DNA from: Myxococcota bacterium
GTDB taxonomy: Bacteria > Myxococcota_A > UBA796 > JAJRTE01 > JBJTQF01
Length of the DNA: 64,000 nucleotides
Assembly: GCA_046075485.1 (NCBI GenBank)
Contig: JBJTQF010000129.1
Coordinates: forward strand, 1,824-65,823
Reading direction: 5' to 3'
Positions within the stretch are counted from its first letter, which is position 1. Each line of letters starts with the position of its first letter. Positions 10,293 to 60,681 of this stretch are shown piece by piece. The notes beneath the pieces are model-generated. The model was given only the letters and a program-made list of their open reading frames with translations. It ran no database searches and was not told where the DNA came from. The position numbers and the translations under genes were made by a program.

Positions 10293-10299
10293 CGGGAGC

Positions 10300-17482: not shown

Positions 17483-18079
17483 ATGAACGCCCTCAAAAGT
17501 TCGCTCTTTCTTGTGACGTTGGTCTCATTGCCTCTGGCGCGTATCGACTCGTGCGGCAATTATGACGGAGACCTCGACGGTTTTGGTGAGGACGATGACA
17601 ACTGCGTCGAGCAGTATAATCCCAGCCAGCAGGACGAGGACGGAGATGGGGTGGGAGACGCATGTGATGCGGACACGCCTCAGCATGATACCCATCTGGC
17701 GCCGTGTTATGTCGCCAACTTCTCTGACTTGAGGGGCATCGGCTGGACGGACATCAAGATGTATCCTTATGTGGATGGTGCGGGCACCAAGTGGATGATC
17801 TTCTGGTGGCCGCCTTCTGATTGGCCCGAGTACGGCATCCAGTACGATAATGGCCAGGATGTATGGTCGATGATCTCCAACGAAGCCAGTGTGGACTGGA
17901 CCAGCACCTGGTTTGAAGCCTTCGGCGTCGAGACCGATGCCACGGGCATGGTGACGGTGCTCGAGGGTCCGGCCATCATGCAGTCGTGTACAAACTGCGA
18001 CACCTCCACCTACTGGGAGAAGTGGTACGAGGGCGTCATGACCGCTGAGGCCACCGACATATCCTTCTGCACCGAATAA
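17483..18079 (+). CDS. Secreted protein with a thrombospondin type-3-like calcium-binding Asp-rich repeat
   Basis: ATG 17483 with a GGAGAG RBS. Signal peptide MNALKSSLFLVTLVSLPLA. DGDLDGFGEDDDNC...DEDGDGVGDACD matches DxDxDG TSP3-like motifs. Divergently transcribed from the sigma-54 activator across an AT-richer intergenic region. Confidence 0.5.
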   Translation: MNALKSSLFLVTLVSLPLARIDSCGNYDGDLDGFGEDDDNCVEQYNPSQQDEDGDGVGDACDADTPQHDTHLAPCYVANFSDLRGIGWTDIKMYPYVDGAGTKWMIFWWPPSDWPEYGIQYDNGQDVWSMISNEASVDWTSTWFEAFGVETDATGMVTVLEGPAIMQSCTNCDTSTYWEKWYEGVMTAEATDISFCTE

Positions 18080-28721: not shown

Positions 28722-29879
28722 GTGCTTGTGCTCAGTCCGCGTGTTCGTCTGGGGCTCTTGCTGTCATCGCTGGCCCTGCTTTTGGTGGTCATGTATGCCA
28801 TTCGAGGGGTTTTATTGCCCTTCGTGCTGGCTTTTTTGAGTCTTTATCTGCTCAATCCGCTGGTGGAGCGTCTCACGCGCGTGCAGGTGGGCGCACGTCC
28901 GCTCCCGCGCGCGGTGGCGGTGGCGGTGGTATTGATCGGTGTGTTGGGGCTGCTCGCGGGTATTGTCAGCTACTTGGTGCCCGCGCTGGCTCAGGAGTTC
29001 CGTCCATTCCGGCAGAACCTGCCTCAGTATTATTATCAGCTCGTCAATACGCAGCTTCCCAACCTCATCCACTTTTTGCAGCGCACCGCCAACGAAGCGG
29101 GGCTGGAAATCAACGTGCAAGCAGCCCTCTTGGGCGGGCTGCCGGAGACCTTCAGCTCTGAGAATGGCTTCTTTTTGGTGGGAGAAGTGCAGAAGATCGT
29201 CGGGGGGTTTTTTGGCACCCTCTTCCGCTTTATCTTGGTCTTCATCTTGACCATGTTTTTGCTGCTCGACTGGCCCAAGATCCGAGACATCATCGCCAAC
29301 CTCGTACCGCCTCGATTTCGGCAGGTGCTGGGGGAGCTGGTGAAGTCATTGGATCGGGATCTCAGCGGCTCGATTCGAGGACAGCTCAGCATCTGCGCGA
29401 TCAACTTTGTGCTCACCACCCTTGGATTATGGGTACTTGGCGTAAAATATGCCCTCACGCTGGGGGTCATCGCCGGGGTTTTCTCTATTATTCCGGTCTT
29501 TGGCTCCATCATCAGCACCCTGCCGATTGTGCTGGTGTGCCTGACCGTCTCCATGTGGGATGCCGTCAAAGCCGTCCTGATGATCATCTTTATCCACCTG
29601 ATCGAAGCCAACATCCTCAACCCGAAGGTGATGGGCCATCATGTGGAGCTGCACCCGATCATCATTCTGTTTGCCATCATGGTGGGCGAACATCTGCTGG
29701 GACCGGTGGGCCTGCTGATCGGCGTGCCCATTGTGGCCGCGCTGCGCTCGCTCCTGCTCTTTGTGCTGCAACGCATTGCCGAGAACTCCGGCGAAGAGCC
29801 TCCCGGAGAGGGGGCCAACGCTGCTGCCGGAGTCCGTGAAGCCGCCACCTCTACCACCCCGGCCCCCCTCGCCAATTGA
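28722..29879 (+). CDS. AI-2E family transporter (PerM/YdiK/TqsA-like, UPF0118)
   Basis: GTG start with a GAGAGGGG RBS. About 8 TM helices and typical length. Conserved C-terminal region with ...IPIV... and charged tail. Confidence 0.6.
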   Translation: MLVLSPRVRLGLLLSSLALLLVVMYAIRGVLLPFVLAFLSLYLLNPLVERLTRVQVGARPLPRAVAVAVVLIGVLGLLAGIVSYLVPALAQEFRPFRQNLPQYYYQLVNTQLPNLIHFLQRTANEAGLEINVQAALLGGLPETFSSENGFFLVGEVQKIVGGFFGTLFRFILVFILTMFLLLDWPKIRDIIANLVPPRFRQVLGELVKSLDRDLSGSIRGQLSICAINFVLTTLGLWVLGVKYALTLGVIAGVFSIIPVFGSIISTLPIVLVCLTVSMWDAVKAVLMIIFIHLIEANILNPKVMGHHVELHPIIILFAIMVGEHLLGPVGLLIGVPIVAALRSLLLFVLQRIAENSGEEPPGEGANAAAGVREAATSTTPAPLAN

Positions 29880-30043
29880 CCGTTTCTTCCTACACCCATG
29901 CCCCTGACCGTTTCTTCCTACACCCATGCCCTTTGACCGCTGCTTTCTACACCCATGCCCTTTGAACTGTCCGACTTTTCGGACAGTGTCCGACTTTTCG
30001 GACACTCGGACACCCCCTCGGACACCTGCCCGGACACCTCCCA
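29880..30043. repeat. Cluster of tandem direct repeats and repeated hairpins right after the AI-2E stop: 3 x ~28 bp (ccgtttcttcctacacccatgccc...), 2 x tgtccga-cttt-tcggaca hairpin, 4 x cggacacc
   Basis: Seen in the sequence. The units are contiguous with no spacers, so it is not a CRISPR array. The hairpins may be terminators, or operators for the downstream gene. Confidence 0.75.
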
Positions 30044-37612: not shown

Positions 37613-37680
37613 CGCGCATCACGTAGGTACGCGCATCACGCCGGTACGCGCATCACGTAGGTACGCGCATCACTCAGGTA
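37613..37680. repeat. 4 x 17-bp tandem direct repeat (cgcgcatcacg(t/c)(a/c)ggta) downstream of glgC and upstream of the flotillin-like gene
   Basis: Seen in the sequence. Confidence 0.75.
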
Positions 37681-37724
37681 CGGCAGCAGGCGCTCGTGGA
37701 AGGCGACAGCAGGCAGGCGCAGGC

Positions 37725-39565: not shown

Positions 39566-40402
39566 GTGGACACGCTGGAAAAAGTCAGAGGGCAACATGG
39601 CATCGTCGGACGTCAACAGGAGCTGGAAGCCCTCTTTGCCTGCCTCAGCGCCGGTCGGCATGTGCTGCTCGAAGGTCCGGTGGCCGTCGGGAAAACGGCG
39701 CTCGCCCGAGCCTGCGCGGAGGTGCTCGAGCGTGGGGTGCTGCGGGTCGATGGGGATGGGCGCTTCACCGAGCAAAAGCTGGTGGGCCAGTTTGACCCGC
39801 CCGTGGTCATGCGCGAAGGGTATCACGCCGGTGCGTTCCTCCGAGGACCGCTGGTCCAAGCGATGGAGCAAGGGTCCATTCTCTTCATCAACGAGCTCAA
39901 CCGCATGCCCGAAGGGGTCCAGAATGTGCTCCTGCCGGTGCTCGACGAGGGCTCGCTGGTGGTGCCTCATCTGGGTCAGCTCCGCGCGGCACCTGGATTT
40001 TCGGTCATCGCCACGATGAACCCGAGGGAGTTTGTGGCCACCGGGCATCTCTCGGAAGCACTGCTCGACCGCTTCGAGCTGATTCAGCTCCGCCATCAGT
40101 CGGAGGCGGAGGAGCTGGAGATCGTGCTCCGCCATACACGTCCGCCCACACCGGATCGGGCGCTGGCGGAAGAAGCGGTGGCCATCGTGCGCCGGACTCG
40201 CCAGCATCCCCGCATTCGTCGAGGAGCCAGTGTCCGCGCAGCCATCGCACTGGTGGAGGTCGCGCGTGCGTTGGGGGGCATCGAGGCGCTCTCGCGTGCC
40301 GCTCAGGTGGCGCTCCCCGGTCGTATCGAGCTGCGTGAGGCTCAAGAGGGGGTCATGGAAGGGGTGCTGCTCGAGGTGGCGCCCGAGAAAAAAAAAAGAT
40401 AA
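39566..40402 (+). CDS. MoxR-like AAA+ ATPase
   Basis: GTG start with an AAGGAG RBS. Walker A LEGPVAVGKT, Walker B ILFINELNR, sensor region. Length about 280 aa. Confidence 0.7.
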   Translation: MDTLEKVRGQHGIVGRQQELEALFACLSAGRHVLLEGPVAVGKTALARACAEVLERGVLRVDGDGRFTEQKLVGQFDPPVVMREGYHAGAFLRGPLVQAMEQGSILFINELNRMPEGVQNVLLPVLDEGSLVVPHLGQLRAAPGFSVIATMNPREFVATGHLSEALLDRFELIQLRHQSEAEELEIVLRHTRPPTPDRALAEEAVAIVRRTRQHPRIRRGASVRAAIALVEVARALGGIEALSRAAQVALPGRIELREAQEGVMEGVLLEVAPEKKKR

Positions 40403-40437
40403 AACTGGCCACGGAGGATCTCAGCAAGACCGCCTCC

Positions 40438-41313
40438 ATGCAATATGAGGACGACCGCGACCGCAGCTCACCCTTTATTCCCAACCCAGAGGCGGGTGAT
40501 GAGGAGGCCATGCTCCCCGAAGGATGGGAGGCGGCCATCGAATACCACCGGCTCAAGCGGATCATCCCCGAGGGTCGTGTACGTGCGCGGGTGCGTGAGG
40601 CGGCGATTTCGGCGGTGCTCCAGCAGGCGATGGAGTGTGTTCGGCATGCTTCTCGTCCGATGCGGATCCGGGAGCAGGCGTGGCAGGAAGCGCCGGGGGG
40701 GGATATCGACCTGGAGCAGACACTCGACGCGGGTTATCTGCTGGAGCCGGAAGATCCTCAGCGGCTGCGGGTCTTACAACGAGAGGCGCGTGAGGCGGAT
40801 GTGGTGCTGATCCTCGACATGAGCTTGTCCATGACCGGTGAGAAGATCGCGCTGGTGGCGGTGGCAACAACGGTGTTGGCCTTTACCTTGCCAGCGGAGC
40901 GGCTCGGGCTGGTGGTCTTTGATTCTCAAGCGCATGTGCTCAAGCGGCTGGGGGAGGTGTTGCCGTTGCGGGAGCTGGTGCGGCGGCTGCTGGAGTTTCC
41001 GGCGAAGGGCTACACACACCTCTCGGATGGGCTGCGTAAGGGGCTCGAGGTGCTCCGGGAAGGCCGTCAAGCGGTTCGCTGTGGTGTTTTGATGTCGGAT
41101 GGGGTCTATAATGTAGGCTGGGATCCTGCGCCGCTGGCGACCCTCTATCCTCGGCTGCATGTGATCCAGGTGGGGGAGGGAGATGTCGAGTCTCGTGACA
41201 AGGGGCTCAGTCGCCGCATGGCCAGCAACGGGCGAGGCCGGTATGCACGCGCCGAACGTTATGAGGAGCTGCCTTCGATGACTTGGCGGCTGGTGCAGGA
41301 TCTCTTCCGCTGA
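40438..41313 (+). CDS. von Willebrand factor A (VWA) domain protein, partner of the MoxR ATPase
   Basis: MIDAS-like VLILDMSLSM and downstream VLMSDG. Directly follows the MoxR gene, which is the canonical pairing. Confidence 0.65.
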   Translation: MQYEDDRDRSSPFIPNPEAGDEEAMLPEGWEAAIEYHRLKRIIPEGRVRARVREAAISAVLQQAMECVRHASRPMRIREQAWQEAPGGDIDLEQTLDAGYLLEPEDPQRLRVLQREAREADVVLILDMSLSMTGEKIALVAVATTVLAFTLPAERLGLVVFDSQAHVLKRLGEVLPLRELVRRLLEFPAKGYTHLSDGLRKGLEVLREGRQAVRCGVLMSDGVYNVGWDPAPLATLYPRLHVIQVGEGDVESRDKGLSRRMASNGRGRYARAERYEELPSMTWRLVQDLFR

Positions 41314-44541: not shown

Positions 44542-45084
44542 TCATGTTTTGGAGGATGAGGACTCTAGCTTGATCGCCGCCAGCTTGTCCTGCAACGTTC
44601 CAAAAGACTGCGAAGGGGTGCCCTCCGTGTACGGCGCAGCGGAAGGTGCTCCAGTTCGACCCGCGACGGTATGATCCGCCCGAGCCTGCCCGGGCCGCTG
44701 TCCCGAGGGATAAGCGGTTCGTGTGCCTGCACCACCGCCATCACCTCCCGAAATCCTTGCTCGTTCTGTCTGTGTTGATTGCTGGGCGCGGGCCAGACGC
44801 CTGAGCCAGCCAAGCTGCCAGCGCAGGTCTGCTTCCGTGGGAGCAAGCGACTGATGTACTGTGTGCAGTAGCCAATCCAACACCTCCTTGTGAGCCTTTT
44901 CGATCTCCTCTCGCGCGGTGAAAGCCGTGTTCTCCAGGCGCTCGAGCAGCTCGACGGCGTCCTGGACACTTCCGCCCTGTGCCAGACATTCGAGCGCATC
45001 CTGCATAAAACGTTCATGGTTTGACGTGTTCATACCGGCGGCGGCCTGTTCTAACTTTTGGAGCGTGTGGGTCTTCGAATGCAC
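44542..45084 (-). CDS. Small alpha-helical protein, candidate Cas11 (Csm2-like small subunit); last gene of the cas operon
   Basis: GTG start with a GGGAGG RBS 8 nt upstream, 1 nt after the upstream RAMP stop. Predicted all-helical about 110-aa core plus a disordered Gly/Ala-rich tail. Assignment is by position and composition only. Confidence 0.35.
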   Translation of the reverse strand: MHSKTHTLQKLEQAAAGMNTSNHERFMQDALECLAQGGSVQDAVELLERLENTAFTAREEIEKAHKEVLDWLLHTVHQSLAPTEADLRWQLGWLRRLARAQQSTQTERARISGGDGGGAGTRTAYPSGQRPGQARADHTVAGRTGAPSAAPYTEGTPSQSFGTLQDKLAAIKLESSSSKT

Positions 45085-45085
45085 G

Positions 45086-46150
45086 TCAACAACCTCCCTG
45101 ATGCAGCGTGATCAGTTGTTTTTCGCCCTCGTTCCATCGATCTTCCCAGCTCACAAAGTGGTCACGAAGCGTCGCACGCTCCATCGATACAAGGTGCCGT
45201 TGGTGATCGTAGAGCTCAATGGACTTCAGCTCCGGCTTGACACGACCGAAGCCGAGCGCACGACCTGCGCCGACCTTGAGATAGGAGGCAGGCTCACATC
45301 CCAGAGCGGTCAGCAGTCCCCCGAGCTCCTCCGGCAAGAGGTTCTGAAAGATCAGCGTGCCGGTGAGCCAGACGTTTTTTGGGATCACCTCGACCTTAAA
45401 GGGCTTGGGCTTTTTGGCATTCGGCGCAGGCGCAGGCGCAGAGACGGTGGCGGTGCTGTTCGAGAGGGCAAATTTACGCCCGTGCAGCGTGCTCACCTCA
45501 AAGTAGGCGTCGCTGTTGGGTGACGATTTTCTTGCAACCCCCAGATGGTGGAGGTTCGGGCTAAACTGAGCTGGGAGTTCCGCCAGCTCAGTGGTCTCGC
45601 CAGACGGTACTGCATACGCTTCTAAGACCAAGTCTGAGCAGGTGAGACGCCCTCGTTGACTCTCTCTGCCTGCACATCCAAAGAGCGCACACGCCGGACA
45701 CATCATTGCGGCGCGCGGATCCACTTGACAGCGATGGAAGGCCGCCCCCTGTATGGCACTCGGGAGGAGCTGCGCGTACCCCACGCGAGTGGTGGAGCGG
45801 ATCTTCTCTTTGTTATGGGCTTTGAGCTTGGTCACACTCACGCAGCTCTTGGTGAGGGCTTCATAACGAGCCCGGAGCAGTCCTTTTAAGCTGGAGCCCG
45901 GAATACCAAGCTGGCCTGCGATGCGCATGCAGCTCCGCACCACCTCGCCGTTGACCAGACGTTTCCCCCCAGAGCCGACATGAACCGGCTGCTCGGTCAA
46001 GAAACGGATCTCCAAACGCCCCGAGAGTGTGCCTTCGCAGCGTCGATCCAGCCTCGCCTCGCGACGCCGTTTACACGCCACATGGGGAGAAACCTGTACA
46101 AACTCATAGCCCTGTGGGATCTGCTTTTTGGAGAGAGTCGATGAGCTCAT
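45086..46150 (-). CDS. cas7: Type III Cas7-family RAMP protein (Csm3/Csm5/Cmr-like)
   Basis: G-rich loop GIPGSSLKGLLRARYEAL. Cys cluster CPACALFGC (RAMP zinc-finger/FG motif). Start overlaps the upstream gene stop (ATGA). Confidence 0.75.
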   Translation of the reverse strand: MSSSTLSKKQIPQGYEFVQVSPHVACKRRREARLDRRCEGTLSGRLEIRFLTEQPVHVGSGGKRLVNGEVVRSCMRIAGQLGIPGSSLKGLLRARYEALTKSCVSVTKLKAHNKEKIRSTTRVGYAQLLPSAIQGAAFHRCQVDPRAAMMCPACALFGCAGRESQRGRLTCSDLVLEAYAVPSGETTELAELPAQFSPNLHHLGVARKSSPNSDAYFEVSTLHGRKFALSNSTATVSAPAPAPNAKKPKPFKVEVIPKNVWLTGTLIFQNLLPEELGGLLTALGCEPASYLKVGAGRALGFGRVKPELKSIELYDHQRHLVSMERATLRDHFVSWEDRWNEGEKQLITLHQGGC

Positions 46151-47091
46151 GTCGCCCCTCCCAGTGTGTTGCGTGCATGTTCTAACCAGGTTTGAAGCTG
46201 CTCCGGTGAGGGCTCAAAGCGAACTGCCAGCCCTCGGCGAAGTCCTGGTTCACCGGTCAGCTCAGCGTCCGGCTCCAGACCGTAGTCCAGCCGTTCCCGC
46301 TCCGTCGCCAGCCTGCCCACGCCGGTTGCTGGAGCACCCTCTCGCCCAGACTGCTCATGCAGAAAGGACTCCACATGCACCCGCACGAAGCCCAGCCCTC
46401 GACTCTTGCCAGAGCCAAGCTGGACAAAACCGAGGTTGAGCTCTTCAAGGGCCGAGGCGACCAGCCCAAGCTGCCAGAGCTGATAGTTTTCAAAGCTCAG
46501 CTCGCCCCAGAAAGAGACCCCCACTGGCACCAGCTCTTGATCAAACGGACCATCGGCCACCGAACCCTTGATGCGGTCAATGGCCACATTCAGCCGAAGT
46601 TCCGTCTTGTTGGCCGCTTGGAGGTTGTGGAGCTGCGCCGCTGAGAGCGGCTCCTCTTGGTTCGGCCAGGGAAAGAAGTCTCGCACTCCGACTCGTCCCT
46701 TGAGGACCGTGGAGCCAAAAGTACGACATGCCGAACAGTGCATTTTGTAAACGTCAGAGGTGGAGAGGGGAGGCTCCTGCTTACGGCGCTTGTGAACACG
46801 AACACTACATGACAGTTCCTGTTCTTTCTTGTTTTCAAATGGATTACACGCCCCTTGCCGCGTCCCAAAAGACGACCCCCGAATGCTCGCTTCCACCGCC
46901 GCACGTAACACCCCCTTAAAGCTCGAGCCCGGGATGTAAACGGTCGAGCCATGCTGAAGGTGTCGCGTCCGAACACACACCAAGTCCGCCAGTGTGGGAT
47001 CCAAGCCTGCAAATCCCGCTCGAATGAGCAGCGGCGAAACCGTCTCGAGACGAAGGCGGAGCACCGCCCGATTATAGCTCTTACGAAACAT
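46147..47091 (-). CDS. cas7: Type III Cas7-family RAMP protein (Csm3/Cmr4-like)
   Basis: YIPGSSFKGVLRAAVEA G-rich loop. CSACRTFGS. C-terminal GSGKSRGLG glycine-rich segment. Confidence 0.8.
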   Translation of the reverse strand: MFRKSYNRAVLRLRLETVSPLLIRAGFAGLDPTLADLVCVRTRHLQHGSTVYIPGSSFKGVLRAAVEASIRGSSFGTRQGACNPFENKKEQELSCSVRVHKRRKQEPPLSTSDVYKMHCSACRTFGSTVLKGRVGVRDFFPWPNQEEPLSAAQLHNLQAANKTELRLNVAIDRIKGSVADGPFDQELVPVGVSFWGELSFENYQLWQLGLVASALEELNLGFVQLGSGKSRGLGFVRVHVESFLHEQSGREGAPATGVGRLATERERLDYGLEPDAELTGEPGLRRGLAVRFEPSPEQLQTWLEHARNTLGGAT

Positions 47092-47989
47092 GTTGAGCCT
47101 CCTTTACCACAAGCGCCAGTGCCTGACGATACTTCTCTAGGCGCTCCAAGAGGTCATCTCCGTTGAGTTTTTCGACACCTTTCCCTTCCAGTAGGCTGCG
47201 AGCATCCAGTCGTTCAAGCGAATCCCAGTGCAGAGAGACACGCCCCAACCCTCGCGAGGTGAAGCCCCCCAGCGCCGTAAACCCTTCGTGGAGCTGGTCA
47301 AAGCCCACGGTCAGCAGTCCCATCGCCCAGGGGGACGGATTGTCAACAAAGACCTCCAGGGTAAAACGAGCGCCTGGCGAGACCACCTCAAAGTCGTACT
47401 TCTGGCTGTTGTGAACAGTACGCAGATCCCGATCAATGGCCACACCATCCCGAAGTTCAATGGGAAGGCGACGACGGCCTCGCCATGCTCGCTCCTGAAG
47501 CAGCAGGTCCGAGAAGCGTACATGGCTGGCCACCGCCCGGGAGCCCAGGATACGACAGATGCAGCAATGCTGCTCCAGCTTCACGGCGTCGTGCCTGCCT
47601 CGTCGATGCCAGCCGCAGCTTCCAGTGCCGTTGCGCTGATCGGACTCCGCCTCGAGCAGCGGATCGCAGGCCCACAGCCCCGAGGTGGGAGGCAAGTCCG
47701 CACCACGAACCAGCGCCTCCAGGGTGGCACGAATGGCTCCCTTCAGGCTGCTACCCGGAATGAATGGGAACCCATCTGCATCTCGCATGACGGGCAGATC
47801 GACGGCGTTGAGCTCGTCGGAGTCTCCCCCGCCGATCCGAAGCCCGGTCTGAGCGACCAACGAGCCCCTGAGCACCAGTCGCTCTCGAAGTGTATGAAAG
47901 TTCGCCACTTCTTCGGCGGAGATCTCAGTGCGGTTCGGGGGGAATGGTGGAGCGGTGAGTGGCTCCTGCTCTGACCTCTCGATGCTCAT
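47081..47989 (-). CDS. cas7: Type III Cas7-family RAMP protein (Csm3/Cmr4/Cmr6-like)
   Basis: FIPGSSLKGAIRATLEAL. CCICRILGS. GGFTSRGLGRV glycine-rich segment. 11-nt overlap with the downstream gene. Confidence 0.8.
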   Translation of the reverse strand: MSIERSEQEPLTAPPFPPNRTEISAEEVANFHTLRERLVLRGSLVAQTGLRIGGGDSDELNAVDLPVMRDADGFPFIPGSSLKGAIRATLEALVRGADLPPTSGLWACDPLLEAESDQRNGTGSCGWHRRGRHDAVKLEQHCCICRILGSRAVASHVRFSDLLLQERAWRGRRRLPIELRDGVAIDRDLRTVHNSQKYDFEVVSPGARFTLEVFVDNPSPWAMGLLTVGFDQLHEGFTALGGFTSRGLGRVSLHWDSLERLDARSLLEGKGVEKLNGDDLLERLEKYRQALALVVKEAQHVS

Positions 47990-50289
47990 GAGCGTGATCC
48001 TCCCTGAGAGCGTGGAGCCGGGGTAGCGTCAGCGCGACGTGTCGCCGGGTGATCGGAGCGTCGGTCACCTGAATGTCGGTCTTTCTCCACCGCTTGATGG
48101 TAGGTGAAGGCCCGTGTGAGAAAGGTTGTATACAGTCTCCAGCCATAGACTCGTAAGGGGTCGTCGTCCTCTGCGATGCTATTCATGGCGGCTTCGGCCC
48201 CACCAATGACGGACTGGACCAGCTTGAGATTCCAGCCGGTGGTTCTTTCTCCCCGTCCTGCCTGATAGCGGAGGTAATTTTTAATCTCGGCCTCTACTTC
48301 TGCTTGGCTACAGATGCCGATGAGATGATTAAACTGGCTCTTATTGGGGGTTCCCTTGCGCTCTGAGTTGAACGCCTCCTCCATGACCCGCTCGGCCTCC
48401 ACGACCAAGTGCTTCCGATAAGGTCTGATGCGGCTGTCCAAGTCTGAGCCTTCCAGCGGGCTGGACTCCTGCTTGTCTGAGGAGAGGTGTCTGCTGTCCA
48501 TGTCGTCTCCTTGTGTAAAAAACGGATCGTAAATCAAGAGCTGACCAAAACCTTGATGACGTCTGTCACCACTTCCAGACGCCTCCAAGTGGGCCAGCCG
48601 TTCGAGCATGTTCTTTTCATCGAGCTGAGCAGGGAAACGCACCACAAAGACGGCTCCCGCTGCGACAGCCTGGACACAGGTCATCTGACCGCTGCGCTGG
48701 TCCCAGCTCCCTTCCCGACTAAAACGACGCTGAGAAAGGAAGAGCTCAGCGCCCAGGTCTTGAGCAATACTCTGCGCGCCATCTCCCCCATCCAGCGGGA
48801 TCAGCGGCGAGAGCAACGTGATGGGCACCAGTCGGCTGGACTGTTTTTCATCCAGCTTGAGCTTCTTCAACAGCTCACGCAGCTTTTGTTGGAACTGTTG
48901 ACGCCGCTCCACCAGCGGCTTCCAGCGGGGTGGCTCGAGCACCTCCACCTGAACCTGCCCCCAGCCGTGAGCACTTCCACGCCCCAGGGCCCGCAAGGAG
49001 TTCAACCCCTGGGCCAGTCGAACGCGGCTCTCCGCAGGAATCTGGCGGATGGAGCCTTCAAAAACAGCTCCCGGCTGAAGCTGCTCCTGACAAAAGAGCT
49101 GCTCGTGGGCTGCGGCATCGCGACCACGATCCAGCGACACTCGAGTACGGGTCTGAGTCGAGGGAGCACTGCGATGGGTACGCCAGCCGTGTGCGTTCCG
49201 CAGCGGCGCGCCACATGTACACGTCAAGCTCCGGATTCGGCTGAGGCGGTTCATCTGCTCGGGCTGCTCGATGAGGGTTGCCGCCATCAGCTCCAGCAGA
49301 GAATCCCGAAGTTTATGTGTTCGTCCCGCTTGTTTACAGAGCATGGCGGTGATCGGAAGGGGGCCCGGCACGCTGTGCGGAAAAACACACGGCTCGGTGG
49401 GGTGCAGAAAGCCAAAGTGAGCACCAGAATTTGCAACCAGTGCTTGAAATGCAGCATCCGCATTAGGATCAAGCGCTTGTGCATTCAGGATCTCCGCGAG
49501 GGTAAACCCAACGGCCCCTCGGAGTGTGCTGCCAGGCACATCCAGCCGACACTCGAGCAGGTTACGCTCACTGACGGGCGCTGCCAATGCAGTCGGCGAG
49601 CGTAGGGTCACGCGCACACTCACGGCGTCGGGAGAGGGAAGCGTAAGGTGCGGTTCAGATGGCGGGGAACACAGCTCGAGCTGGAGCTCGGCGCGTGCCA
49701 TGCCTCGGCTTCTTCCACTGCCGATATGGGTGGTCGCTCGAACGGCGGCCTTGAGATGAAACAGAAGCTGCTCATCCTTGAGGCACCCAGTCGCCTCAAA
49801 ACGGAGCTGGCGGCGAGAGGGCACCCGCTGCATGAAGAGTCGCTGCTCCTCTGCCGAACGAGACGCCCGAGAGCGCCCGAGACCAGGGCGCGTCATCCAG
49901 CCGGGCTCTGTCTGACAATGTGCATCATGCAGATCAAGGGCAGAAAAACGGAGGGATTGTGCGGGTAAATCTTCACGCTGGCCACCAAACAGACGGCAGG
50001 GCACACAAGGCCGTCCATTCTCGAGGGTACAGGGTTGAGCAGCTTGGAGGCTTCCGTAGGGGACACCGGTTCCGCCTGCGCAGACGGGAGCGGGCTGGTC
50101 GGGTGAGGCCATTCCTCTCAGCAGTGCCTCCAGGGATTGGCGGAGGGCTCCTCGGATGGCGGTGGCAGGGATAAAGGCCCTTCCATCCTGAGCGGCGTGC
50201 ATGATATGAACTCCAGCGGGGGCTGCGGACACACCGCCGATCAACAGTCCTCCACTGGGAAAGGTGAGCGTGAGCTTAAGCTGTTTCAT
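47986..50289 (-). CDS. Large (767 aa) fusion protein with two RAMP domains (Cas7/Cas5-like) and a C-terminal helical extension
   Basis: RAMP 1: FIPATAIRGALRQSLEALL, CVPCRLFGG, GSGRSRGMARAEL. RAMP 2: LDVPGSTLRGAVGFTLAE, LGRGSAHGWGQVQVEV. About 230-aa helical C-terminus. ATGA overlaps at both ends. Confidence 0.7.
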   Translation of the reverse strand: MKQLKLTLTFPSGGLLIGGVSAAPAGVHIMHAAQDGRAFIPATAIRGALRQSLEALLRGMASPDQPAPVCAGGTGVPYGSLQAAQPCTLENGRPCVPCRLFGGQREDLPAQSLRFSALDLHDAHCQTEPGWMTRPGLGRSRASRSAEEQRLFMQRVPSRRQLRFEATGCLKDEQLLFHLKAAVRATTHIGSGRSRGMARAELQLELCSPPSEPHLTLPSPDAVSVRVTLRSPTALAAPVSERNLLECRLDVPGSTLRGAVGFTLAEILNAQALDPNADAAFQALVANSGAHFGFLHPTEPCVFPHSVPGPLPITAMLCKQAGRTHKLRDSLLELMAATLIEQPEQMNRLSRIRSLTCTCGAPLRNAHGWRTHRSAPSTQTRTRVSLDRGRDAAAHEQLFCQEQLQPGAVFEGSIRQIPAESRVRLAQGLNSLRALGRGSAHGWGQVQVEVLEPPRWKPLVERRQQFQQKLRELLKKLKLDEKQSSRLVPITLLSPLIPLDGGDGAQSIAQDLGAELFLSQRRFSREGSWDQRSGQMTCVQAVAAGAVFVVRFPAQLDEKNMLERLAHLEASGSGDRRHQGFGQLLIYDPFFTQGDDMDSRHLSSDKQESSPLEGSDLDSRIRPYRKHLVVEAERVMEEAFNSERKGTPNKSQFNHLIGICSQAEVEAEIKNYLRYQAGRGERTTGWNLKLVQSVIGGAEAAMNSIAEDDDPLRVYGWRLYTTFLTRAFTYHQAVEKDRHSGDRRSDHPATRRADATPAPRSQGGSRS

Positions 50290-51818
50290 GGGATCTTCTC
50301 CAGGAGTCGAGCCAGGGTGAGCAGTCCAGGCTTGGGCATGTCGTCGATCATCACCTCTTTCTGCTTCCAGTCGGCGCCAATGCTGGCAAAATAGTGCTTC
50401 CAGCTCTCCGAGCGGGCCACCTGGTAGCGGAATTGGTTATGCGCTTCTTCCATCACCTCTGCTCGATGGATGTCTGCCAACCAGCTCCGTTGGGAGGACT
50501 GCACCCTCTTGAGGGCCTCTGCTCCGATGCGGGTCTGTTTCCAGTCATCGGCATCCAGGGAGAATGGATGTCCGTTGCGGTAGAGGTCCAGTGTTTGTGC
50601 TTCGATGCGGAGCTCTCCTGCGGTCATCAGTGCCACCTCCAACCCGCTGCGCCAGCCTCCTTCGCGGCATCCTTGTTTAGCGTGGTCCTCGAGCTGATGT
50701 GCCAAGCTCAGCAGGCGGGAAGCGGGAAAGGCACCGTTGGCGATGAGCAATCCGACGCCCAGCCCTGCTGCTTTCAGTGTGTTTTTTGCTCCGGTCTCTT
50801 CCAAGACGCTGTATTTACCCACAGAACTTAGAATCTCTGCTGCGTCTGTCAGTCCTTCTTCAATGGTTTGAGTCAGACATAGCACGTAGGTCAGACTGTC
50901 TTTGGGTGCGAGGAAGGCTCTCACATCGTCGCCTCCAGAGGCCACCGAGATGAGGGCATTCCCAACGGCGGCAGCCGCTTTTGTTTGTGCGCCGGCAAAG
51001 ATCTCTCCGACAAGCGCGGACACCGTGGCACACAACTCCAGCGTCGAGAGGCTCGAGAACAACTGTCCCAGGTTATTGCCATCCGCTGAGACCACAGCCA
51101 CCTGCTGATCTGGCGAGAGCTCGATCAGCGAGCCCTGTTTGACGGACTTCCCGCTGAGCCGAATGAAGGCGTCACAGCGAGGACAGATGAGCTCATGGCG
51201 CGCGTCGGGGCGCGGAGAGGGGACAGTCCCTTTGAAGGCATGGCAATCTGCGCAGGCGTCTGCTCGTGAGGTGGGAAGCTCACCGCCGGGAACGGTGGCT
51301 CCATCTTTGGCCAGCTCAAGCCGCGTCCGCAACAGCTCCAGGCAGGATTTGGCGCTTTTCGTATCGTAGGGGGACGAGGCTGTCGCCAGGACGCCCCCGA
51401 AGCTCTGCTCAAAGAAGGTGTGCTTGAGCTCATGCTGAAGCTGTTTCGCTTTGTCCTCTGACGAAGCGAGCAGCATGCCACGGCCTCCGGCGGCGAAGAT
51501 GGCCCCTGCTCTCTTCCGTTGTTGTGTGTCAAACTGCTTCAGCCACTGGCTGGCACCGTACATGGCAATCGGGCGACTATTGGCGGCAATGAGAGACTGA
51601 ATTCCATTGACATCGTAGGCCACCAGCCACGGACGCGCTCCGGCTTGCTGGATGGCCTTACGTGTGTTGGCCTCCGTCTTCTTGCAGAGGGATTTGAGAT
51701 CTGAGCTCAAGCATGCTCCTCCTGTTGAGGGTCGTGATGGTCCCGCAGTGTGGCCTGACGGGTATCTCGATGGAGGGATTGCACGCTGAGTCGGAAGAAG
51801 CTGACACCTGCTCGTCAC
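50286..51818 (-). CDS. cas10: Cas10-like large subunit lacking an HD domain (palm/cyclase domains with GGDD; treble-clef zinc finger)
   Basis: LVAYDVNGIQSL (palm 1), CADCHAF...ICPRCD zinc finger, VVSADGNNLGQLF and ISVASGGDDV (palm 2 GGDD), helical C-terminal domain. No H..HD motif at the N-terminus. The start is uncertain (GTG at 51818, no good RBS). Confidence 0.65.
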   Translation of the reverse strand: MTSRCQLLPTQRAIPPSRYPSGHTAGPSRPSTGGACLSSDLKSLCKKTEANTRKAIQQAGARPWLVAYDVNGIQSLIAANSRPIAMYGASQWLKQFDTQQRKRAGAIFAAGGRGMLLASSEDKAKQLQHELKHTFFEQSFGGVLATASSPYDTKSAKSCLELLRTRLELAKDGATVPGGELPTSRADACADCHAFKGTVPSPRPDARHELICPRCDAFIRLSGKSVKQGSLIELSPDQQVAVVSADGNNLGQLFSSLSTLELCATVSALVGEIFAGAQTKAAAAVGNALISVASGGDDVRAFLAPKDSLTYVLCLTQTIEEGLTDAAEILSSVGKYSVLEETGAKNTLKAAGLGVGLLIANGAFPASRLLSLAHQLEDHAKQGCREGGWRSGLEVALMTAGELRIEAQTLDLYRNGHPFSLDADDWKQTRIGAEALKRVQSSQRSWLADIHRAEVMEEAHNQFRYQVARSESWKHYFASIGADWKQKEVMIDDMPKPGLLTLARLLEKIP

Positions 51819-52006: not shown

Positions 52007-52531
52007 TCACTTACACCGTTGAGCACTGCACGCTTGGCTCAGCGCCGTCACCCCTGCCTGCCCTGCCGGAGAGCGTGCTTCTTCGGCCAGGAGCCGGTGA
52101 CGCCAGCACGCCACACGTTTCATCGTCTGGCGGTCCCAACGCTCCCAGTCTTGTTTGTACTTGATGCGCTGGTACTCCACCCCGCGATCCGCTGGCAGCC
52201 CCTCTCGACTGTTGCCATCCCAGCTATGAGATCTCAACGCAATTAGTTTGTCTTTATCGATCACCATCACCACATGCCCTGCCCCTCGCCCTTCGTCCCG
52301 GTAGACCAGCACATCCCCTGCCAGAAGCGGCTTATCGGCGGGACACTGCTCAAAGTGACGAGCCAGCGCGCTGTTATTTCCCACCATCCCTGCCGTCGCC
52401 ACATACCGGTCCTCCGGCGTGTACGGCAGACCTGCCCGTGTGAAGGCAAACCAGCTCGCCCGCGAACAATCAATCCCGCGTGACAGGTTGATGGCATCCG
52501 AGCTCCCGCTCCAGCCGAGTGGTAGGCGCAC
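52007..52531 (-). CDS. NlpC/P60 (C40 peptidase)-like protein
   Basis: GIDCSRASWFAF...LPYTP (Cys motif), GDVLVY...GHVVMVI (His motif) follow the NlpC/P60 Cys-His pattern. No signal peptide. Confidence 0.4.
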   Translation of the reverse strand: MRLPLGWSGSSDAINLSRGIDCSRASWFAFTRAGLPYTPEDRYVATAGMVGNNSALARHFEQCPADKPLLAGDVLVYRDEGRGAGHVVMVIDKDKLIALRSHSWDGNSREGLPADRGVEYQRIKYKQDWERWDRQTMKRVACWRHRLLAEEARSPAGQAGVTALSQACSAQRCK

Positions 52532-56862: not shown

Positions 56863-58068
56863 TTAGGGATCTCCTCCCGCTCGCGCAGCGATCTCACTCA
56901 GGAGCGCATGGTCTGGGATCATATAGGGCTCCGGCGGGGTGGTGATGCCCTTCTCGCGCAGGCGTGCGTGGAGCTGCGTCGCATGACTCACCCCCAGCGC
57001 CTGAACCTGCACCCCCTGGCGTTTATGAATCAGCTCGGCAATGGAGGGGGTATCATCGGTGCTCTCGATCACCTCACCTTGAACATCGCGTGTTTTCAGC
57101 ACATTTTCGGCACCGTCCGAGATGAGCACCACCAGCCGCTCATGCGCAGGGTTGCCGTGACGCACCAGCAGCTCCCCCGCATAAACCAGGGCCCGCCCGA
57201 TGTGGGTCATCCGGCCATTTTCCGCCCTCAAGAGGCTGACCGCATCCTGAAACTGACGCACCACCCCCGGCGAGACCCCCGCATTCAGAGGCAGCAGCCC
57301 TCGCGTGCGCGGAAAGACCTGCTGACATTGATCGGTAAAGGCCACCAGCGCAAAACTCGACGCCCTGCCTGGGGTTTTGGTACGCTGCTCGAGCAGGCGC
57401 AGCAGCGACCGCTGCACCGCATCCATCCGGGTGATGCGCCGACGACCCTCGTGCAGCCCGTACCCCTCGTCGAGGGTCATATCACGAATGTTCATCGAGC
57501 CGCTACAGTCCGCCAAGATCACCACGTCGATGCCCACATGCTGACGAGAGGTAAAGAGCTTCACCCGCGTGTTTGTCCCCACTCGAAAGATTGTTGACAT
57601 CTCATTTGGTGCAGGCTTTTGCTGTCTGACCCGGTACAACACATCGTCGAGGGTGATCAGGAGCCCCTCGCGTGTGCTCGCCGCATCGGTCGTAAAGAGC
57701 AGGTGGGGCAGCTCTCGGCTCTCGTTGAGACACGCCAGGGCCTTGTCGCTGGACAGCTCGATCACCGGCTCCAACCACAGCTCTTCGAGCATCACCACCG
57801 GATTTTCTTGCCAGGTGAGCTGCCAGCGGACCCGCTCCTGCTGCAAGCTGAGGGTCTCGGCCAGACGCGCGCTGAGGGCCACCAAGCCGGGCGGGATGCG
57901 GGGATGAGGCAAGATCTGGACGGGCTCGGCACGGTTCGCGTCCAGGTTGTGCAAAATCCCCACCACCTGTTCCTGGAGCACCTGCGGCGAGAGATAGAGG
58001 CGATTTCCTTGCACCATGCCATTCTGATGCATCACACATAACAGTTGTTCGCTTGAGCTTAGTCTCAT
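56863..58068 (-). CDS. VWA-domain protein
   Basis: MIDAS motif VVILADCSGSM and downstream VVLISDGAEN. 4-nt overlap with the upstream gene. Confidence 0.55.
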   Translation of the reverse strand: MRLSSSEQLLCVMHQNGMVQGNRLYLSPQVLQEQVVGILHNLDANRAEPVQILPHPRIPPGLVALSARLAETLSLQQERVRWQLTWQENPVVMLEELWLEPVIELSSDKALACLNESRELPHLLFTTDAASTREGLLITLDDVLYRVRQQKPAPNEMSTIFRVGTNTRVKLFTSRQHVGIDVVILADCSGSMNIRDMTLDEGYGLHEGRRRITRMDAVQRSLLRLLEQRTKTPGRASSFALVAFTDQCQQVFPRTRGLLPLNAGVSPGVVRQFQDAVSLLRAENGRMTHIGRALVYAGELLVRHGNPAHERLVVLISDGAENVLKTRDVQGEVIESTDDTPSIAELIHKRQGVQVQALGVSHATQLHARLREKGITTPPEPYMIPDHALLSEIAARAGGDP

Positions 58069-59300
58069 AAGCTGTCCTTCTCCCAGCGCAGCGACACACC
58101 CAGCGTCCTTTCCAGGCGTGGTTTGGCCTGCTCCACGGCGCCCCGCATTGGCTTGGGCAGGGAGATAAAGAGCAGGTTCAGCGACGGTTTATAGTCCGTG
58201 GCCTGGATTTCTCGGGCGATCTCAGGTTTTCCCAAGCTCTGGAGGGCCTGCGAGAGCTGCTCTTGCAAGCGCACACGCCGGAGCTCCGACGAATCCACCG
58301 GGGTCTGATCGATGCGCTTGAGGGTCTCCTCCAGCCGGGTGCGGAGCTGCACCTCAAAGGGCGACTTTCCGAGCAGCCGTTGCTGCAACCCGGCATAGAG
58401 GGCTCGAATCTGCGCTTGAGAAGGCGTGCGTTGGAGCTGCTTGATGATGACATGGCGTGTTCCCATATAACCGGGGATTCTGAGCTGCTCGTGTGGAGGC
58501 ATGCGCCGGTTACGCAGGATCGTTCCGGCGGCGAGCTGGTAGATCAGAGCGTCTGGGCTCAAGGTGGACAAGTTCCGGTGTGTGGCGCAGAGCATCAGCC
58601 CTTCCCGCTCGGGGCCGTAGATCTTCCATTGGCGGGCGTGATCAGGACAGACCCGCTGACCACAGGGCTGATGGGTGGAGGACTCCACAAACTCACACGA
58701 GAAGGTGCCGAGCTGTGGACACGGGGTCACCGTACAGCGTGGAAATAACGCATCATAACAGTCTGCGCAATAGCGGCGACTGGGATCATTGGGATGAGAC
58801 GTCCCGTGCAGTACACAGATCGCCTGCTGACAGGGGCCGTCACACCAGCTCGTGGCCCGCCCTGAGCAAGTGCGGCAGGTGGGCACATGCGCGGGACAGA
58901 AGGCATCAAGCGCCCCATCCAATAAGGTGGCGTGCTGAAAACACACCTCCACGTTATCTTTTTGCTCATCCCGGCAGGTCACACACTCAAAGGGTGCATA
59001 CTGCTTGGCCTCTGGCGGACAGGCGGAGCAGAAGTGGGTGAGTGAAGGTCTCTCCAGAATCGACCGCAGGGCCAGGGGGGTACTCGGCTGGAGCGGCTGG
59101 AGAGAGGCCGGGGCCCGAATGATCTCTAAGCGAATCACCCCGGAGCCGCTCTTCATCTGGATGAGCTGTCCGGTCTGGAGCGTTTTTCCCATCAGGCTGG
59201 ACTCAATGGCGGTCCAGAGCCGCTGAAAGGAGGCGGGCTCGAGGGCGGGCACACGAGACTGACGAAGATCCATCACCAGGTCAATGCAGTCCATGACCAC
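58065..59300 (-). CDS. Cys-rich hypothetical protein (multiple CxxC pairs, putative zinc-ribbon-rich)
   Basis: More than 25 Cys in about 200 aa (CSACPP, CVTCRD, CPAHVPTCRTCSG, CDGPC, CADCYD, CPDH). 20-nt overlap with the upstream gene. Confidence 0.4.
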   Translation of the reverse strand: MVMDCIDLVMDLRQSRVPALEPASFQRLWTAIESSLMGKTLQTGQLIQMKSGSGVIRLEIIRAPASLQPLQPSTPLALRSILERPSLTHFCSACPPEAKQYAPFECVTCRDEQKDNVEVCFQHATLLDGALDAFCPAHVPTCRTCSGRATSWCDGPCQQAICVLHGTSHPNDPSRRYCADCYDALFPRCTVTPCPQLGTFSCEFVESSTHQPCGQRVCPDHARQWKIYGPEREGLMLCATHRNLSTLSPDALIYQLAAGTILRNRRMPPHEQLRIPGYMGTRHVIIKQLQRTPSQAQIRALYAGLQQRLLGKSPFEVQLRTRLEETLKRIDQTPVDSSELRRVRLQEQLSQALQSLGKPEIAREIQATDYKPSLNLLFISLPKPMRGAVEQAKPRLERTLGVSLRWEKDSL

Positions 59301-60681
59301 CTCCGTGACGATGCGGCACTTCGTCTTGTGGGGCTGACGATGTTCGTTCCCCAGCGCCGGGCGTCTCTGAGGCGCTGGAAGGTGCAGCCCCCTCGTGTGT
59401 GGTCGTGGCGGCTCCGGCGGGTTGCAGGTGTGCCTCCCACTGCATCATGATCACGGCATACGCGGCTGGATTTTTCATCCGGTTGTAGTCGGCCAGGGAT
59501 GACCATCCTCCTGTTTGCTTCGTCACACGCGCGGCAGCCCCGAGGGGTTCGGCTCCCCCTGCGGCGGGTGCATCCGTCGAAGGCCCCAGCTCGAGCCGCT
59601 GAGTGCGCACCAGGGTTGCCAGACATGCCGGAATCTGGGGAGAAGCCTTATGAAAGTGGCGGCGGAAGAGCTCATTTTCCGACAAGATCCCCTCCAGTCC
59701 TAAGCTGTTGAGGGCCGCCCCGGAGCTCAGCGGGGCCAGCTCCTCCGGGGTCACACCCAGAACATGCAGCTCTCCCACCATGCTGAGCAGCAGGCGCTCC
59801 AGCCGCTCCGCGCTCTTACTCCGCTCGCCGTTGACCGAAATGAGGGGCGCTTGAACCCCTCGAGCGATGGTCTGGGTGCGATTTTTCTCCAGTGTCCGCT
59901 GAGAGATGCCTTCCACGCGCGCGCCCATGCGGGCCATGCGTCGCCCTTGCAGCAGCAGGGCCTGATACAAGATGCTGTGGACACGAGAGGTTGAGAGCAG
60001 GGTCTGTGCATCGGTCAGATGAATACGAAGCTGTGGCAGCGGCTCACCCTGCTCTTGACGGAGCTGGAGGTCGAGGCTTGCCAAGTCGGAGACACCCCGG
60101 TGACGTTTGAGGTGCGCCAGCACCCGGTCGAGATAGGCAGGCTCGCAGCAGCTCAGATAGGGAGACGCCGAAAAACCGGACTGCTCGAGGCGAACAGAGC
60201 CAGCGGGTTGAACGCCCGCCATACCACTTCGACTGCGCCCAGAGATTGCAATCAGCAGGTCTGATTCTTGACGAATGTGATTGTGAATGACCTCCCGCTC
60301 GATGTCATCGTATACCTCCAGCGCGTGCTCATCTTCGCAGCAGAGCCGAGCCCAGGGGATGCCTTCTCGGGGGGCCACCGCAGCGGGATAGAGCTGAGCG
60401 CCTTGTTGCTCCAGCCAAGCAGCCAGCAGCCGGGTGGCCTCCTGGAGCGCCTGAAAGCAGGTCTCCCGCGCCTCATAGCTGTGCAGCCAGCGTAAGCCGG
60501 TGTCGAGCCATACGGGAGTGGCCAGCTCGTGCGGCCCCGGCGGAACGCGCAGGGTGAGGTTGTCTGGAAACTTCGGCAGGTGCTCCGGGCGGGTTAAGAA
60601 TTGAAAATGAGGTGCCACCACCACCCAGCCTTTGCGTAGGCGCTGACGAGAGGGTCCAATTCGATAGAGCTTCACCAGCAT
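59281..60681 (-). CDS. Hypothetical protein (first gene of the four-gene operon)
   Basis: 466-aa ORF with good coding character. No motif confidently recognised. Confidence 0.35.
   Translation of the reverse strand: MLVKLYRIGPSRQRLRKGWVVVAPHFQFLTRPEHLPKFPDNLTLRVPPGPHELATPVWLDTGLRWLHSYEARETCFQALQEATRLLAAWLEQQGAQLYPAAVAPREGIPWARLCCEDEHALEVYDDIEREVIHNHIRQESDLLIAISGRSRSGMAGVQPAGSVRLEQSGFSASPYLSCCEPAYLDRVLAHLKRHRGVSDLASLDLQLRQEQGEPLPQLRIHLTDAQTLLSTSRVHSILYQALLLQGRRMARMGARVEGISQRTLEKNRTQTIARGVQAPLISVNGERSKSAERLERLLLSMVGELHVLGVTPEELAPLSSGAALNSLGLEGILSENELFRRHFHKASPQIPACLATLVRTQRLELGPSTDAPAAGGAEPLGAAARVTKQTGGWSSLADYNRMKNPAAYAVIMMQWEAHLQPAGAATTTHEGAAPSSASETPGAGERTSSAPQDEVPHRHGGGHGLH

Follow-up and report, generated by a model that had tools for sequence, protein, structure and literature searches.

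What is made when two RAMP modules and a long helical region share one reading frame inside a CRISPR operon, and where does such a protein stand among the type III systems already known? These questions are raised by a gene at 47986..50289 (minus strand) of a 64-kb stretch of Myxococcota DNA (contig JBJTQF010000129.1; the whole stretch is called the window below), which encodes 767 amino acids (aa) in an uninterrupted open reading frame (ORF) of 767 codons. A preliminary description of this sequence had proposed two RAMP modules followed by a helical extension, in a derived type III system. Our analysis indicates that the protein very probably holds the Cas7, Cas5 (Csx10) and Cas11 subunits of a type III-D effector in a single chain. 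Its domain identities and fold, the structure of its operon and its relation by fusion and fission to stand-alone cas11 genes are direct observations. The architecture as such is already known, and the 767-aa protein adds a very divergent member to it without being a protein of a new kind.

Domain architecture of the 767-residue protein

The plus-strand frame at 47986-50289 is full of stops; the coding strand is the minus strand, on which ATGA start/stop overlaps join the gene to its neighbours at both ends. Hidden Markov models (HMMs) from Pfam, NCBIfam and PADLOC agree on the units of the protein and on their order, with Cas7, Csx10 and Csm2 matches falling one after the other along the chain. 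The N-terminal unit was matched by Pfam RAMPs (residues 15-197, E 5e-12), NCBIfam Csx7 (34-200) and PADLOC Csm3 (12-199, E 1e-14). The second unit was matched by Pfam Cas_Cmr3 (364-586), by PADLOC Cas5_IIId (224-591, E 4.7e-27) and by the NCBIfam Csx10 model TIGR02674 (222-591, E 1.5e-25), the last with 90 bits, below its equivalog cutoff of 177. The C-terminal domain was matched by the PADLOC Csm2 HMM at 620-737 (E 7.3e-7) and by 'CAS-III-D effector_SS' (E 1.3e-6). Two RAMP units are thus recovered by HMM as first proposed, the second of them being a Csx10-type Cas5 and not a simple RAMP.

In coordinates, these units are a Cas7 (Csx7/Csm3-like) domain with a CCCC zinc knuckle (residues 1-207; 49669..50289, minus strand), a Csx10-type Cas5 domain as in type III-D (residues 223-590; 48520..49623, minus strand), a flexible Cas5-Cas11 linker (residues 591-614; 48448..48519, minus strand) and a Cas11 (Csm2-like small subunit) domain folded as a five-helix bundle (residues 615-743; 48061..48447, minus strand), followed by a disordered basic tail (residues 744-767; 47989-48060, minus strand). 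The annotation can now be given precisely as Cas7-Cas5(Csx10)-Cas11 instead of 'RAMP superfamily protein'.

The motifs quoted in the preliminary description (CVPCRLFGG, G-rich loops, glycine-rich segments) all lie where it had placed them. CVPCRLFGG occupies residues 95-103, inside the Cas7 zinc knuckle, and the G-rich loops read HIGSGRSRG (188), GRGSAHGWG (436) and GSGDRRHQGFG (572). In the alignment of homologues, the knuckle ligands C70/C87/C95/C98 are nearly invariant and a Cys/His cluster of the Cas5 domain (C318/H325/C357/C359) is conserved; the two appear to be conserved metal-ligand clusters. In a profile alignment, His28 of the fused Cas7 (50206-50208, minus strand) falls opposite catalytic D26 of the Synechocystis Cas7-Cas5-Cas11 protein, in a loop whose alignment is possibly off by 1-2 residues; across 94 sequences this column has 68 H, 14 D and 8 S. 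Because His28 aligns with catalytic D26 and His is the family majority, the fused Cas7 may not cleave at this site, or may do so by another chemistry. H31, a second His near His28, is nearly invariant in the family.

Two of the PADLOC Cas5_IIId HMMs, PDLC02089 and PDLC02090, are long (679 and 499 positions), and of their matches on the fusion one spans 160-507, from Cas7 into Cas5, and the other 251-669, from Cas5 into Cas11. Since these matches cross the Cas7/Cas5 and Cas5/Cas11 borders, they suggest that fused proteins like this one had already gone into the building of existing Cas5_IIId profiles.

Predicted structure and nearest solved protein

A phmmer search with the whole protein against PDB sequences gave marginal matches (E 0.004 for 9wxh_C, a III-D2 Cas7-5 chain, and E 0.89), so structure prediction was needed. 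An AlphaFold2 model built on 94 homologues (pLDDT, the predicted local distance difference test, 90.2; pTM, the predicted template modelling score, 0.80) contains beta-rich modules at 1-207 and 223-590 and five helices at 615-743, with disorder at 603-614 (pLDDT <50) and in the basic tail at 748-767. The three folded modules are separated by low-confidence linkers, and the model is confident on either side of each junction. The domain-boundary check proposed earlier therefore returned three modules, and the contrary outcome named with it, a single RRM fold, was not seen. The second module is a Cas5 (Csx10), whose solved relatives have two RRM-like halves and an inserted lid.

When the model was compared with the PDB using Foldseek, the best matches were four Synechocystis Cas7-Cas5-Cas11 chains (PDB 8S9T, 8S9U, 8S9V and 8S9X; E 1.5e-30 to 6e-29, template modelling (TM) score 0.53-0.54), headed by 8s9x_A and 8s9t_A (E 1.5e-30, TM 0.54). 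This match to the III-Dv subunit over the full model bears out the assignment to a derived type III system of III-D or III-E likeness. Similarly, hhalign placed residues 1-595 of the family profile colinear with residues 1-595 of the Synechocystis protein, encoded on pSYSA, at a probability of 96.8%.

The same searches bear on a different affiliation, with III-D2 (Cas7-5) or III-E (gRAMP/Cas7-11) and not with III-D1 and III-Dv. The best PDB sequence match is the III-D2 chain 9wxh_C, Cas7-11 forms the second Foldseek tier (E ~1e-11), and zinc knuckles occur in all four Cas7 domains of the operon, as in Cas7-11. However, III-D2 has no Cas11 and does have a Cas7x3 fusion and CorA (PMC13294483), none of which fits this locus, III-E has neither of the Cas5 and Cas10 present here, and in structure the III-Dv subunit is the better match by ~19 orders of magnitude in E. 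We consider membership of III-D2 or III-E extremely improbable and treat the protein as III-D1/III-Dv-like. The comparison with Csx10 and Cas7-11 that had been recommended supports the Csx10-type Cas5 and leaves Cas7-11 as a second-tier structural match.

Identity of the C-terminal helical domain

The extension is helical, as the preliminary description had it, and at ~175 residues, counting linker and tail, it is shorter than the ~230 aa given there, the Cas5 domain ending near 590. Four different Csm2/small-subunit HMMs match it (E 7e-7 to 3e-4) with nearly the whole model covered. Because Cas11 domains are too divergent for hhalign, the C-terminal 156 residues were also modelled alone, giving a five-helix bundle (pLDDT 89.5) for which 11 of the 12 top Foldseek matches are Cas11/Csm2 chains of Csm complexes, with Cmr5 lower down. 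The best of them is 8bmw_B, from the type III-D complex of S. solfataricus, where it is the small subunit (TMt 0.62, root-mean-square deviation 3.4 A). A profile of the domain searched against PDB sequences returned three matches below E 10, all Csm2 and weak (E 0.27-0.46), which have the motifs SQ(l/i)xxL and YLR..YQaGR in common with it. The linker that precedes the domain is hypervariable in length and sequence among fused homologues, and lies at a position equivalent to that of the Synechocystis fusion linker, K602-T624 (bioRxiv 10.1101/2022.06.13.496011).

Further evidence comes from Sorangium sp. So ce854 (locus L001), in which a 596-aa Cas7-Cas5 gene is followed after 6 nucleotides (nt) by a 173-aa gene (L001:11798-12319). 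The product of the latter is 45% identical to the C-terminus of the 767-aa protein (E 5e-30) and itself matches Csm2 HMMs.

Several results weigh against reading the protein as the Cas7, Cas5 and Cas11 of a type III-D effector. Full-length identity to the Synechocystis fusion is only 14%, hhalign found no similarity between the profile of the Cas11 domain and the Synechocystis Cas11 domain, and Foldseek E values for the isolated domain are weak, at 0.1-0.5. His28 is aligned where the Synechocystis Cas7 domain has its catalytic Asp, D26. In addition, neither a CRISPR array (Tandem Repeats Finder, repeat search, Rfam) nor cas6 or adaptation genes (cas1/2) were found in the 64-kb window, and no CARF/SAVED ancillary effector was recognised beside the operon within it.

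The results on the C-terminal domain could be expected if its helices were not Cas11 but an unrelated addition to Cas5 that serves, say, in dimerisation or in docking an effector; small helical bundles easily match one another, the PDB sequence matches reach only E 0.27-0.46, and hhalign sees no similarity to the Synechocystis domain. Foldseek E values of 0.1-0.5 are usual for small bundles. An unrelated extension is at odds with the matches to four Csm2/small-subunit HMMs, with PDB sequence matches that are without exception Csm2 and have motifs in common with the domain, with the predominance of Cas11/Csm2 among the top structural matches, and with the stand-alone orthologue at the exact cas11 position of type III-D operons. 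We judge it very unlikely and retain the Cas11 assignment, for which the HMM matches, the Sorangium orthologue and the Foldseek results agree with the Cas11-like alternative of the preliminary description; its other proposal, a 'Cas5-associated domain', is unneeded given this identity.

Fused and split forms across the family

A homologue search over 5.8 billion proteins retrieved 98 homologues, 94 of which were aligned. Most come from Myxococcota (Sorangium, Polyangium, Nannocystis, Minicystis), and by length two classes can be told apart, one of ~600 aa (77% query coverage) and one of 725-838 aa (95-99%). Cas7 and Cas5 are fused in all family members found, and the full three-part length is carried by 19 of the 94 aligned sequences, from independent contigs and samples, the other 75 being without the Cas11 part. 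Fused forms occur on contigs of metagenome-assembled genomes (MAGs) of Polyangia (L008) and Acidobacteriota (L019); in the latter, the operon layout is the same and the fused domain belongs to the same Cas11 family (hhalign 97.7%). Locus L006 has a Cas7-Cas5 gene and a separate cas11 arranged as in Sorangium, and at L007, a close relative, the same junction is read through in frame.

On the family tree, forms with a fused Cas11 are interleaved with forms without one. Neighbour-joining trees built from the Cas7-Cas5 region call for 8-12 changes of the fused state in each of 100 bootstraps, compared with 13-19 when states are shuffled, and because so many changes are required the Cas5/Cas11 boundary appears to have been opened or closed repeatedly. 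This is a rough estimate, as it uses neighbour-joining trees alone and as some of the genes counted as 'stand-alone' in metagenomes are fragments. When 1.84 billion cluster representatives were scanned exhaustively (HMMER) for the Cas11 domain, 83 clusters were found; ~10 are fused genes or fragments of fused genes, and the others are proteins of ~60-250 aa, mostly 100-190 aa. One candidate stand-alone Cas11, P0100 (176 aa), was rejected: at its locus (L007:1-717) the reading frame is already open at nt 1 and codes for the end of a Cas5 domain, making P0100 the C-terminal fragment of a fused gene at a contig end. Counts of metagenomic stand-alone Cas11 proteins are therefore upper bounds.

These distributions also speak to whether ordinary cas7, csx10 and cas11 genes were joined into one ORF in error, by assembly or by a frameshift. 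In favour of an artefact, 75 of the 94 aligned members are without the Cas11 part, the Sorangium cas11 is separate, 6 nt downstream, and the source contig is metagenome-assembled. Against it, the 19 full-length homologues come from independent contigs and samples, the Polyangia and Acidobacteriota MAGs among them, Cas7 and Cas5 are fused in every member found, the L007 junction is in frame, the linker has the position seen in the experimentally purified Synechocystis fusion, and AlphaFold2 is confident on either side of the junctions. Because 19 independent homologues are fused, a frameshift artefact is for practical purposes ruled out. This possibility, which the preliminary description had raised against itself, is dismissed by these homologues and by the coupled ORF, and we take the three-domain gene to be genuine.

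The operon around the fusion

The fusion stands second among the six genes of an operon on the minus strand. Its junctions are three ATGA overlaps, one 11-nt overlap and one 1-nt gap, so the genes are translationally coupled, and all six ORFs are intact. The first gene, cas10 (50286..51818, minus strand), encodes an HD-less large subunit with matches to Pfam Cas10-Cmr2_palm2 at 240-383 and to PADLOC Cas10/Cas10d HMMs down to E 7e-20. Its GGDD motif is intact at residue 295, palm and zinc-finger were the only domain regions seen, and palm1-like sequence begins at ~residue 64, leaving no space for an HD domain. The protein is weakly similar to the Synechocystis III-Dv Cas10 (E 6e-4), and phmmer against the PDB gave nothing relevant. 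The mechanical ORF of 510 aa (GTG at 51818) is probably over-extended, the likelier start on sequence grounds being an in-frame TTG near 51712 with AGGAGG 7 nt before it, which gives a Cas10 of ~474 aa; relatives have 466-494 aa.

Three stand-alone Cas7 genes follow the fusion. The first (47081..47989, minus strand) encodes a 302-aa Csx7-type protein with a CCICRILG motif, the counterpart of Cas7-2x.1, and matches NCBIfam Csx7 above cutoff (E 6e-47). It aligns with residues 8-178 of Synechocystis Cas7-2x (BLASTP E 7e-14), with D64 opposite catalytic D33. The second (46147..47091, minus strand; 314 aa; CSACRTFG motif) is the counterpart of Cas7-2x.2, with matches to Pfam RAMPs (E 2.5e-22) and to the second half of Synechocystis Cas7-2x (232-408, BLASTP E 2e-6); because the loop aligns ambiguously, either D31 or D36 could be its catalytic Asp. 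The third (45086..46150, minus strand; 354 aa; CPACALFG motif) is a terminal Cas7 related to TIGR03986 and Cas7-insertion, with a partial NCBIfam TIGR03986 match (E 1e-28) and a BLASTP match to the core of Synechocystis Cas7-insertion (E 1e-8). It is without the large insertion (354 versus 795 aa, core segments alone aligning) and without an obvious catalytic Asp.

A zinc-knuckle motif, CxxC-x-(L/I/T)FG, is found in all four Cas7 domains of the operon (45086-47989 and 49996-50082, minus strand) as CVPCRLFG, CCICRILG, CSACRTFG and CPACALFG. The CxxC knuckle also occurs in Cas7-11 and in III-D2 Cas7.3, and the aligned part of the Synechocystis fused Cas7 is without it.

The last gene (44542..45084, minus strand) encodes a conserved uncharacterised protein of 180 aa with a helical N-terminal domain of ~100 aa. 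A homologue of 126-298 aa ends the operon in every related locus examined (L001:15046-15930, L002:14940-15836, L005:10790-11638, L006:6319-6699, L007:3628-4155), and the N-terminal domain carries the motifs NH..(Y/F/W)..(E/D)A and LGWLRR. The protein is shorter than the Sorangium version (294 aa), a short form of 54% identity exists in a relative, and tblastn of the window found no trace of the C-terminal domain present in the Sorangium version. It had no match in Pfam, NCBIfam, PADLOC or PDB sequences; a word-index search found only itself, and a profile search found 13 hypothetical proteins. A second Cas11 and a divergent Csx19 were considered and set aside, its profile having no hhalign similarity to Cas11 or to Synechocystis Csx19. 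No operon protein matched Csx19 in NCBIfam or PADLOC, a result that covers the operon genes and leaves room for a divergent or distant copy. The 180-aa protein could be a new subunit or an accessory replacing Csx19.

Also on the minus strand, 188 nt upstream of cas10, is a candidate ORF of 174 aa (52007-52531) with sub-threshold NlpC/P60 and CHAP matches (E 3e-4 and 7e-3).

Guide source, ancillary genes and a proposed mechanism

Arrays of 35-37-nt repeats were found within 10 kb of the homologous operon in seven of the nine related loci scanned (L005:16499-18028; L010:19837-22000+; L015:7586-8172 and 17783-18047; L017:4095-7100+; L019:16976-21210; L020:16927-17429; L021:53-695), and several of their repeats end in ATTGAAGC or ATTGAAAC-type tags. 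At L001, L002, L008 and L016, as in our window, an array was not found. Guidance by CRISPR RNA (crRNA) is likely for the family, because seven of nine related loci have arrays nearby, and at the present locus the crRNA would come from an array outside the window.

Genes for possible ancillary effectors lie beside related operons: a TIR-SAVED protein in Sorangium (L001:6683-7933), a weak SAVED match at L019:15468-16391, Csx3 and a TIR protein at L005:11651-12592 and 13259-14473, and an AAA/PD-(D/E)XK protein with RtcB at L007:4326-7753. This variety fits cyclic-nucleotide signalling by the Cas10 family to which the present one belongs.

The absences in the window could also mean that the operon is an orphan or decaying type III module without crRNA-guided interference, or one that has been repurposed. 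Such a module would agree with the missing array, cas6 and cas1/2, with a His in place of the catalytic Asp of the fused Cas7, with a last gene of 180 aa versus 294 aa in Sorangium, and with the lack of a recognised ancillary effector nearby. Yet the six ORFs are intact and translationally coupled, GGDD is conserved along with the zinc ligands and with D64 in the Cas7 that follows, His28 is the family majority and no private mutation, the short last gene recurs in a relative at 54% identity, and seven of nine related loci have nearby arrays. Also, type III modules are commonly served by arrays elsewhere in the genome. An orphan module is in our view unlikely, and we proceed with an operon that encodes a probable crRNA-guided type III-D effector.

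By analogy with the solved Synechocystis III-Dv complex, from which we infer its assembly, stoichiometry, catalysis and signalling, such an effector could work as follows. Binding of the crRNA 5' tag and docking on the HD-less Cas10 would fall to the Cas5 domain, and the Cas7 domain would be the first backbone unit on the guide. With its ~20 residues, the flexible linker would allow the Cas11 domain to fold back along the Cas7 filament, and there, together with the C-terminal domain of Cas10, Cas11 would form the minor filament lining the target-RNA groove; being tethered, Cas11 would be present once per complex. The backbone would be lengthened and capped by the three stand-alone Cas7 proteins. 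On binding of target RNA, Cas7 units with a catalytic Asp, in the 302-aa Cas7 through D64 and probably also in the 314-aa Cas7, would cleave it at 6-nt intervals. Binding would also switch on the GGDD palm of Cas10, whose product, a nucleotide second messenger, would act on ancillary effectors, a signalling role predicted because the GGDD motif is present.

Other features of the window

An Rfam scan of the window found no family. A repeat cluster at 29866-30042, apparently intergenic, has three 29-nt direct repeats (TGACCGTTTCTTCCTACACCCATGCCC..), followed by a 19-nt palindromic unit (TGTCCGACTTTTCGGACAG), present in two perfect copies, and after these by CGGACAC repeats. In appearance the cluster resembles an operator or iteron region. 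Four tandem 17-nt units (CGCGCATCACGYAGGTA) occur at 37613-37682, just past the 3' end of a glgC-like gene, and a GT-rich degenerate microsatellite (GTGCGTGCGG-like, ~130 nt) lies at 10295-10440, in a region of strong GC skew. A MoxR-type AAA ATPase and an adjacent VWA protein are encoded at 39566-41313 (plus strand), and a second VWA protein at 56863-58068 (minus strand), in a downstream cluster of genes without Pfam matches (58065-60681). As far as tested, the MoxR/VWA genes are unconnected with the CRISPR operon.

Comparison with known type III systems

The operon has the features of subtype III-D: a Csx10-type Cas5, an HD-less Cas10 and four distinct Cas7 domains. The preliminary description had called the arrangement not textbook, which holds with respect to III-A and III-B; the key fusion had already been described and structurally solved as Cas7-Cas5-Cas11 (PMC11026444), making the locus less unusual than announced.

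In the Synechocystis III-Dv operon the order is cas10, cas7-cas5-cas11, cas7-2x, csx19, cas7-insertion (PMC11026444). The fusion of Synechocystis sp. PCC 6803 (sll7066 region, pSYSA) has the same domain order as ours in 791 aa, compared with 767 aa here, and equivalent linkers (221-244 and 602-624, against ~208-222 and 591-614 here). In both systems it lies directly downstream of an HD-less cas10 and upstream of the Cas7 genes, and colinearity extends along the present operon as cas10, fusion, Cas7-2x.1-like, Cas7-2x.2-like and Cas7-insertion-like genes. The two differ in that catalytic D26 corresponds to His28 here and the CCCC zinc knuckle has no aligned counterpart in the Synechocystis protein. 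The Cas7-2x double fusion is represented here by two separate ORFs (302 and 314 aa, with an 11-nt overlap), Csx19 and the Cas7 insertion were not found, and a different, uncharacterised gene ends the operon. Unlike in Synechocystis, no cas6, cas1-2 or array was found beside the operon in the window.

Type III-D1 has separate csx10, cas11, four cas7 and csx19 genes, whereas here cas7, csx10 and cas11 are one ORF and Csx19 went undetected among the operon proteins. The gene order is common to this locus and the III-D1/S. solfataricus III-D effector (PDB 8BMW; PMC9945777), as are the Csx10-type Cas5, the HD-less Cas10 and distinct Cas7 paralogues not fused to one another. The small subunit of that effector, SsoCsm, is the best structural match of the Cas11 domain.

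III-D2 combines a Cas7-5 protein without Cas11, a Cas7x3 fusion with an insertion, and CorA, and its Cas10 carries GGDE and makes SAM-AMP for CorA (PMC13294483). The Cas7-5 of Gammaproteobacteria bacterium HyVt-522 (PDB 9WXH) is an N-terminal Cas7-Cas5 fusion like the one here, and the ~600-aa form that makes up the majority of our family has the same two-domain architecture. In contrast to III-D2, the present locus has a Cas11 that is fused, separate Cas7s and a Cas10 with GGDD, and there is no CorA among the 17 operon and neighbouring genes scanned. III-E Cas7-11 (gRAMP) likewise joins backbone and Cas11 and has zinc-knuckle Cas7 domains; it contains four Cas7 domains and no Cas5 or Cas10, whereas here Cas5 and Cas10 are kept and one Cas7 is in the fusion.

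On its gene content the locus is a partial-fusion type III-D variant between III-D1 and III-Dv, a modest new variant, because its operon composition fits neither III-D1 nor III-Dv nor III-D2 as described; our literature searches found no description of a myxobacterial form of this operon. A broader reading, which we offer tentatively and would not yet bet on, is that an undescribed Csx19-less III-D sub-variant spans Myxococcota and Acidobacteriota, marked by its layout, by repeated, independent fusion and splitting of cas11 and by the usual His in the first Cas7. In this layout, cas10 and cas7-cas5, with or without cas11, may be followed by three cas7 genes that stay unfused and by a new accessory gene that is conserved. 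If so, these operons would be natural intermediates from multi-subunit to single-protein type III effectors.

The value of the finding is incremental, bearing on classification and on the evolution of compact RNA-targeting effectors, and current understanding is not overturned. Relatives in which the Cas5/Cas11 boundary opens and closes are a comparative system for the effects of tethering on stoichiometry and crRNA length, and also allow one to ask which accessory subunit replaces Csx19. The locus fills a gap in the route that has been proposed to lead from III-D1 to III-E by way of III-Dv and III-D2, because the first III-Dv fusion is present and the second absent, without Csx19 or the Cas7 insertion.

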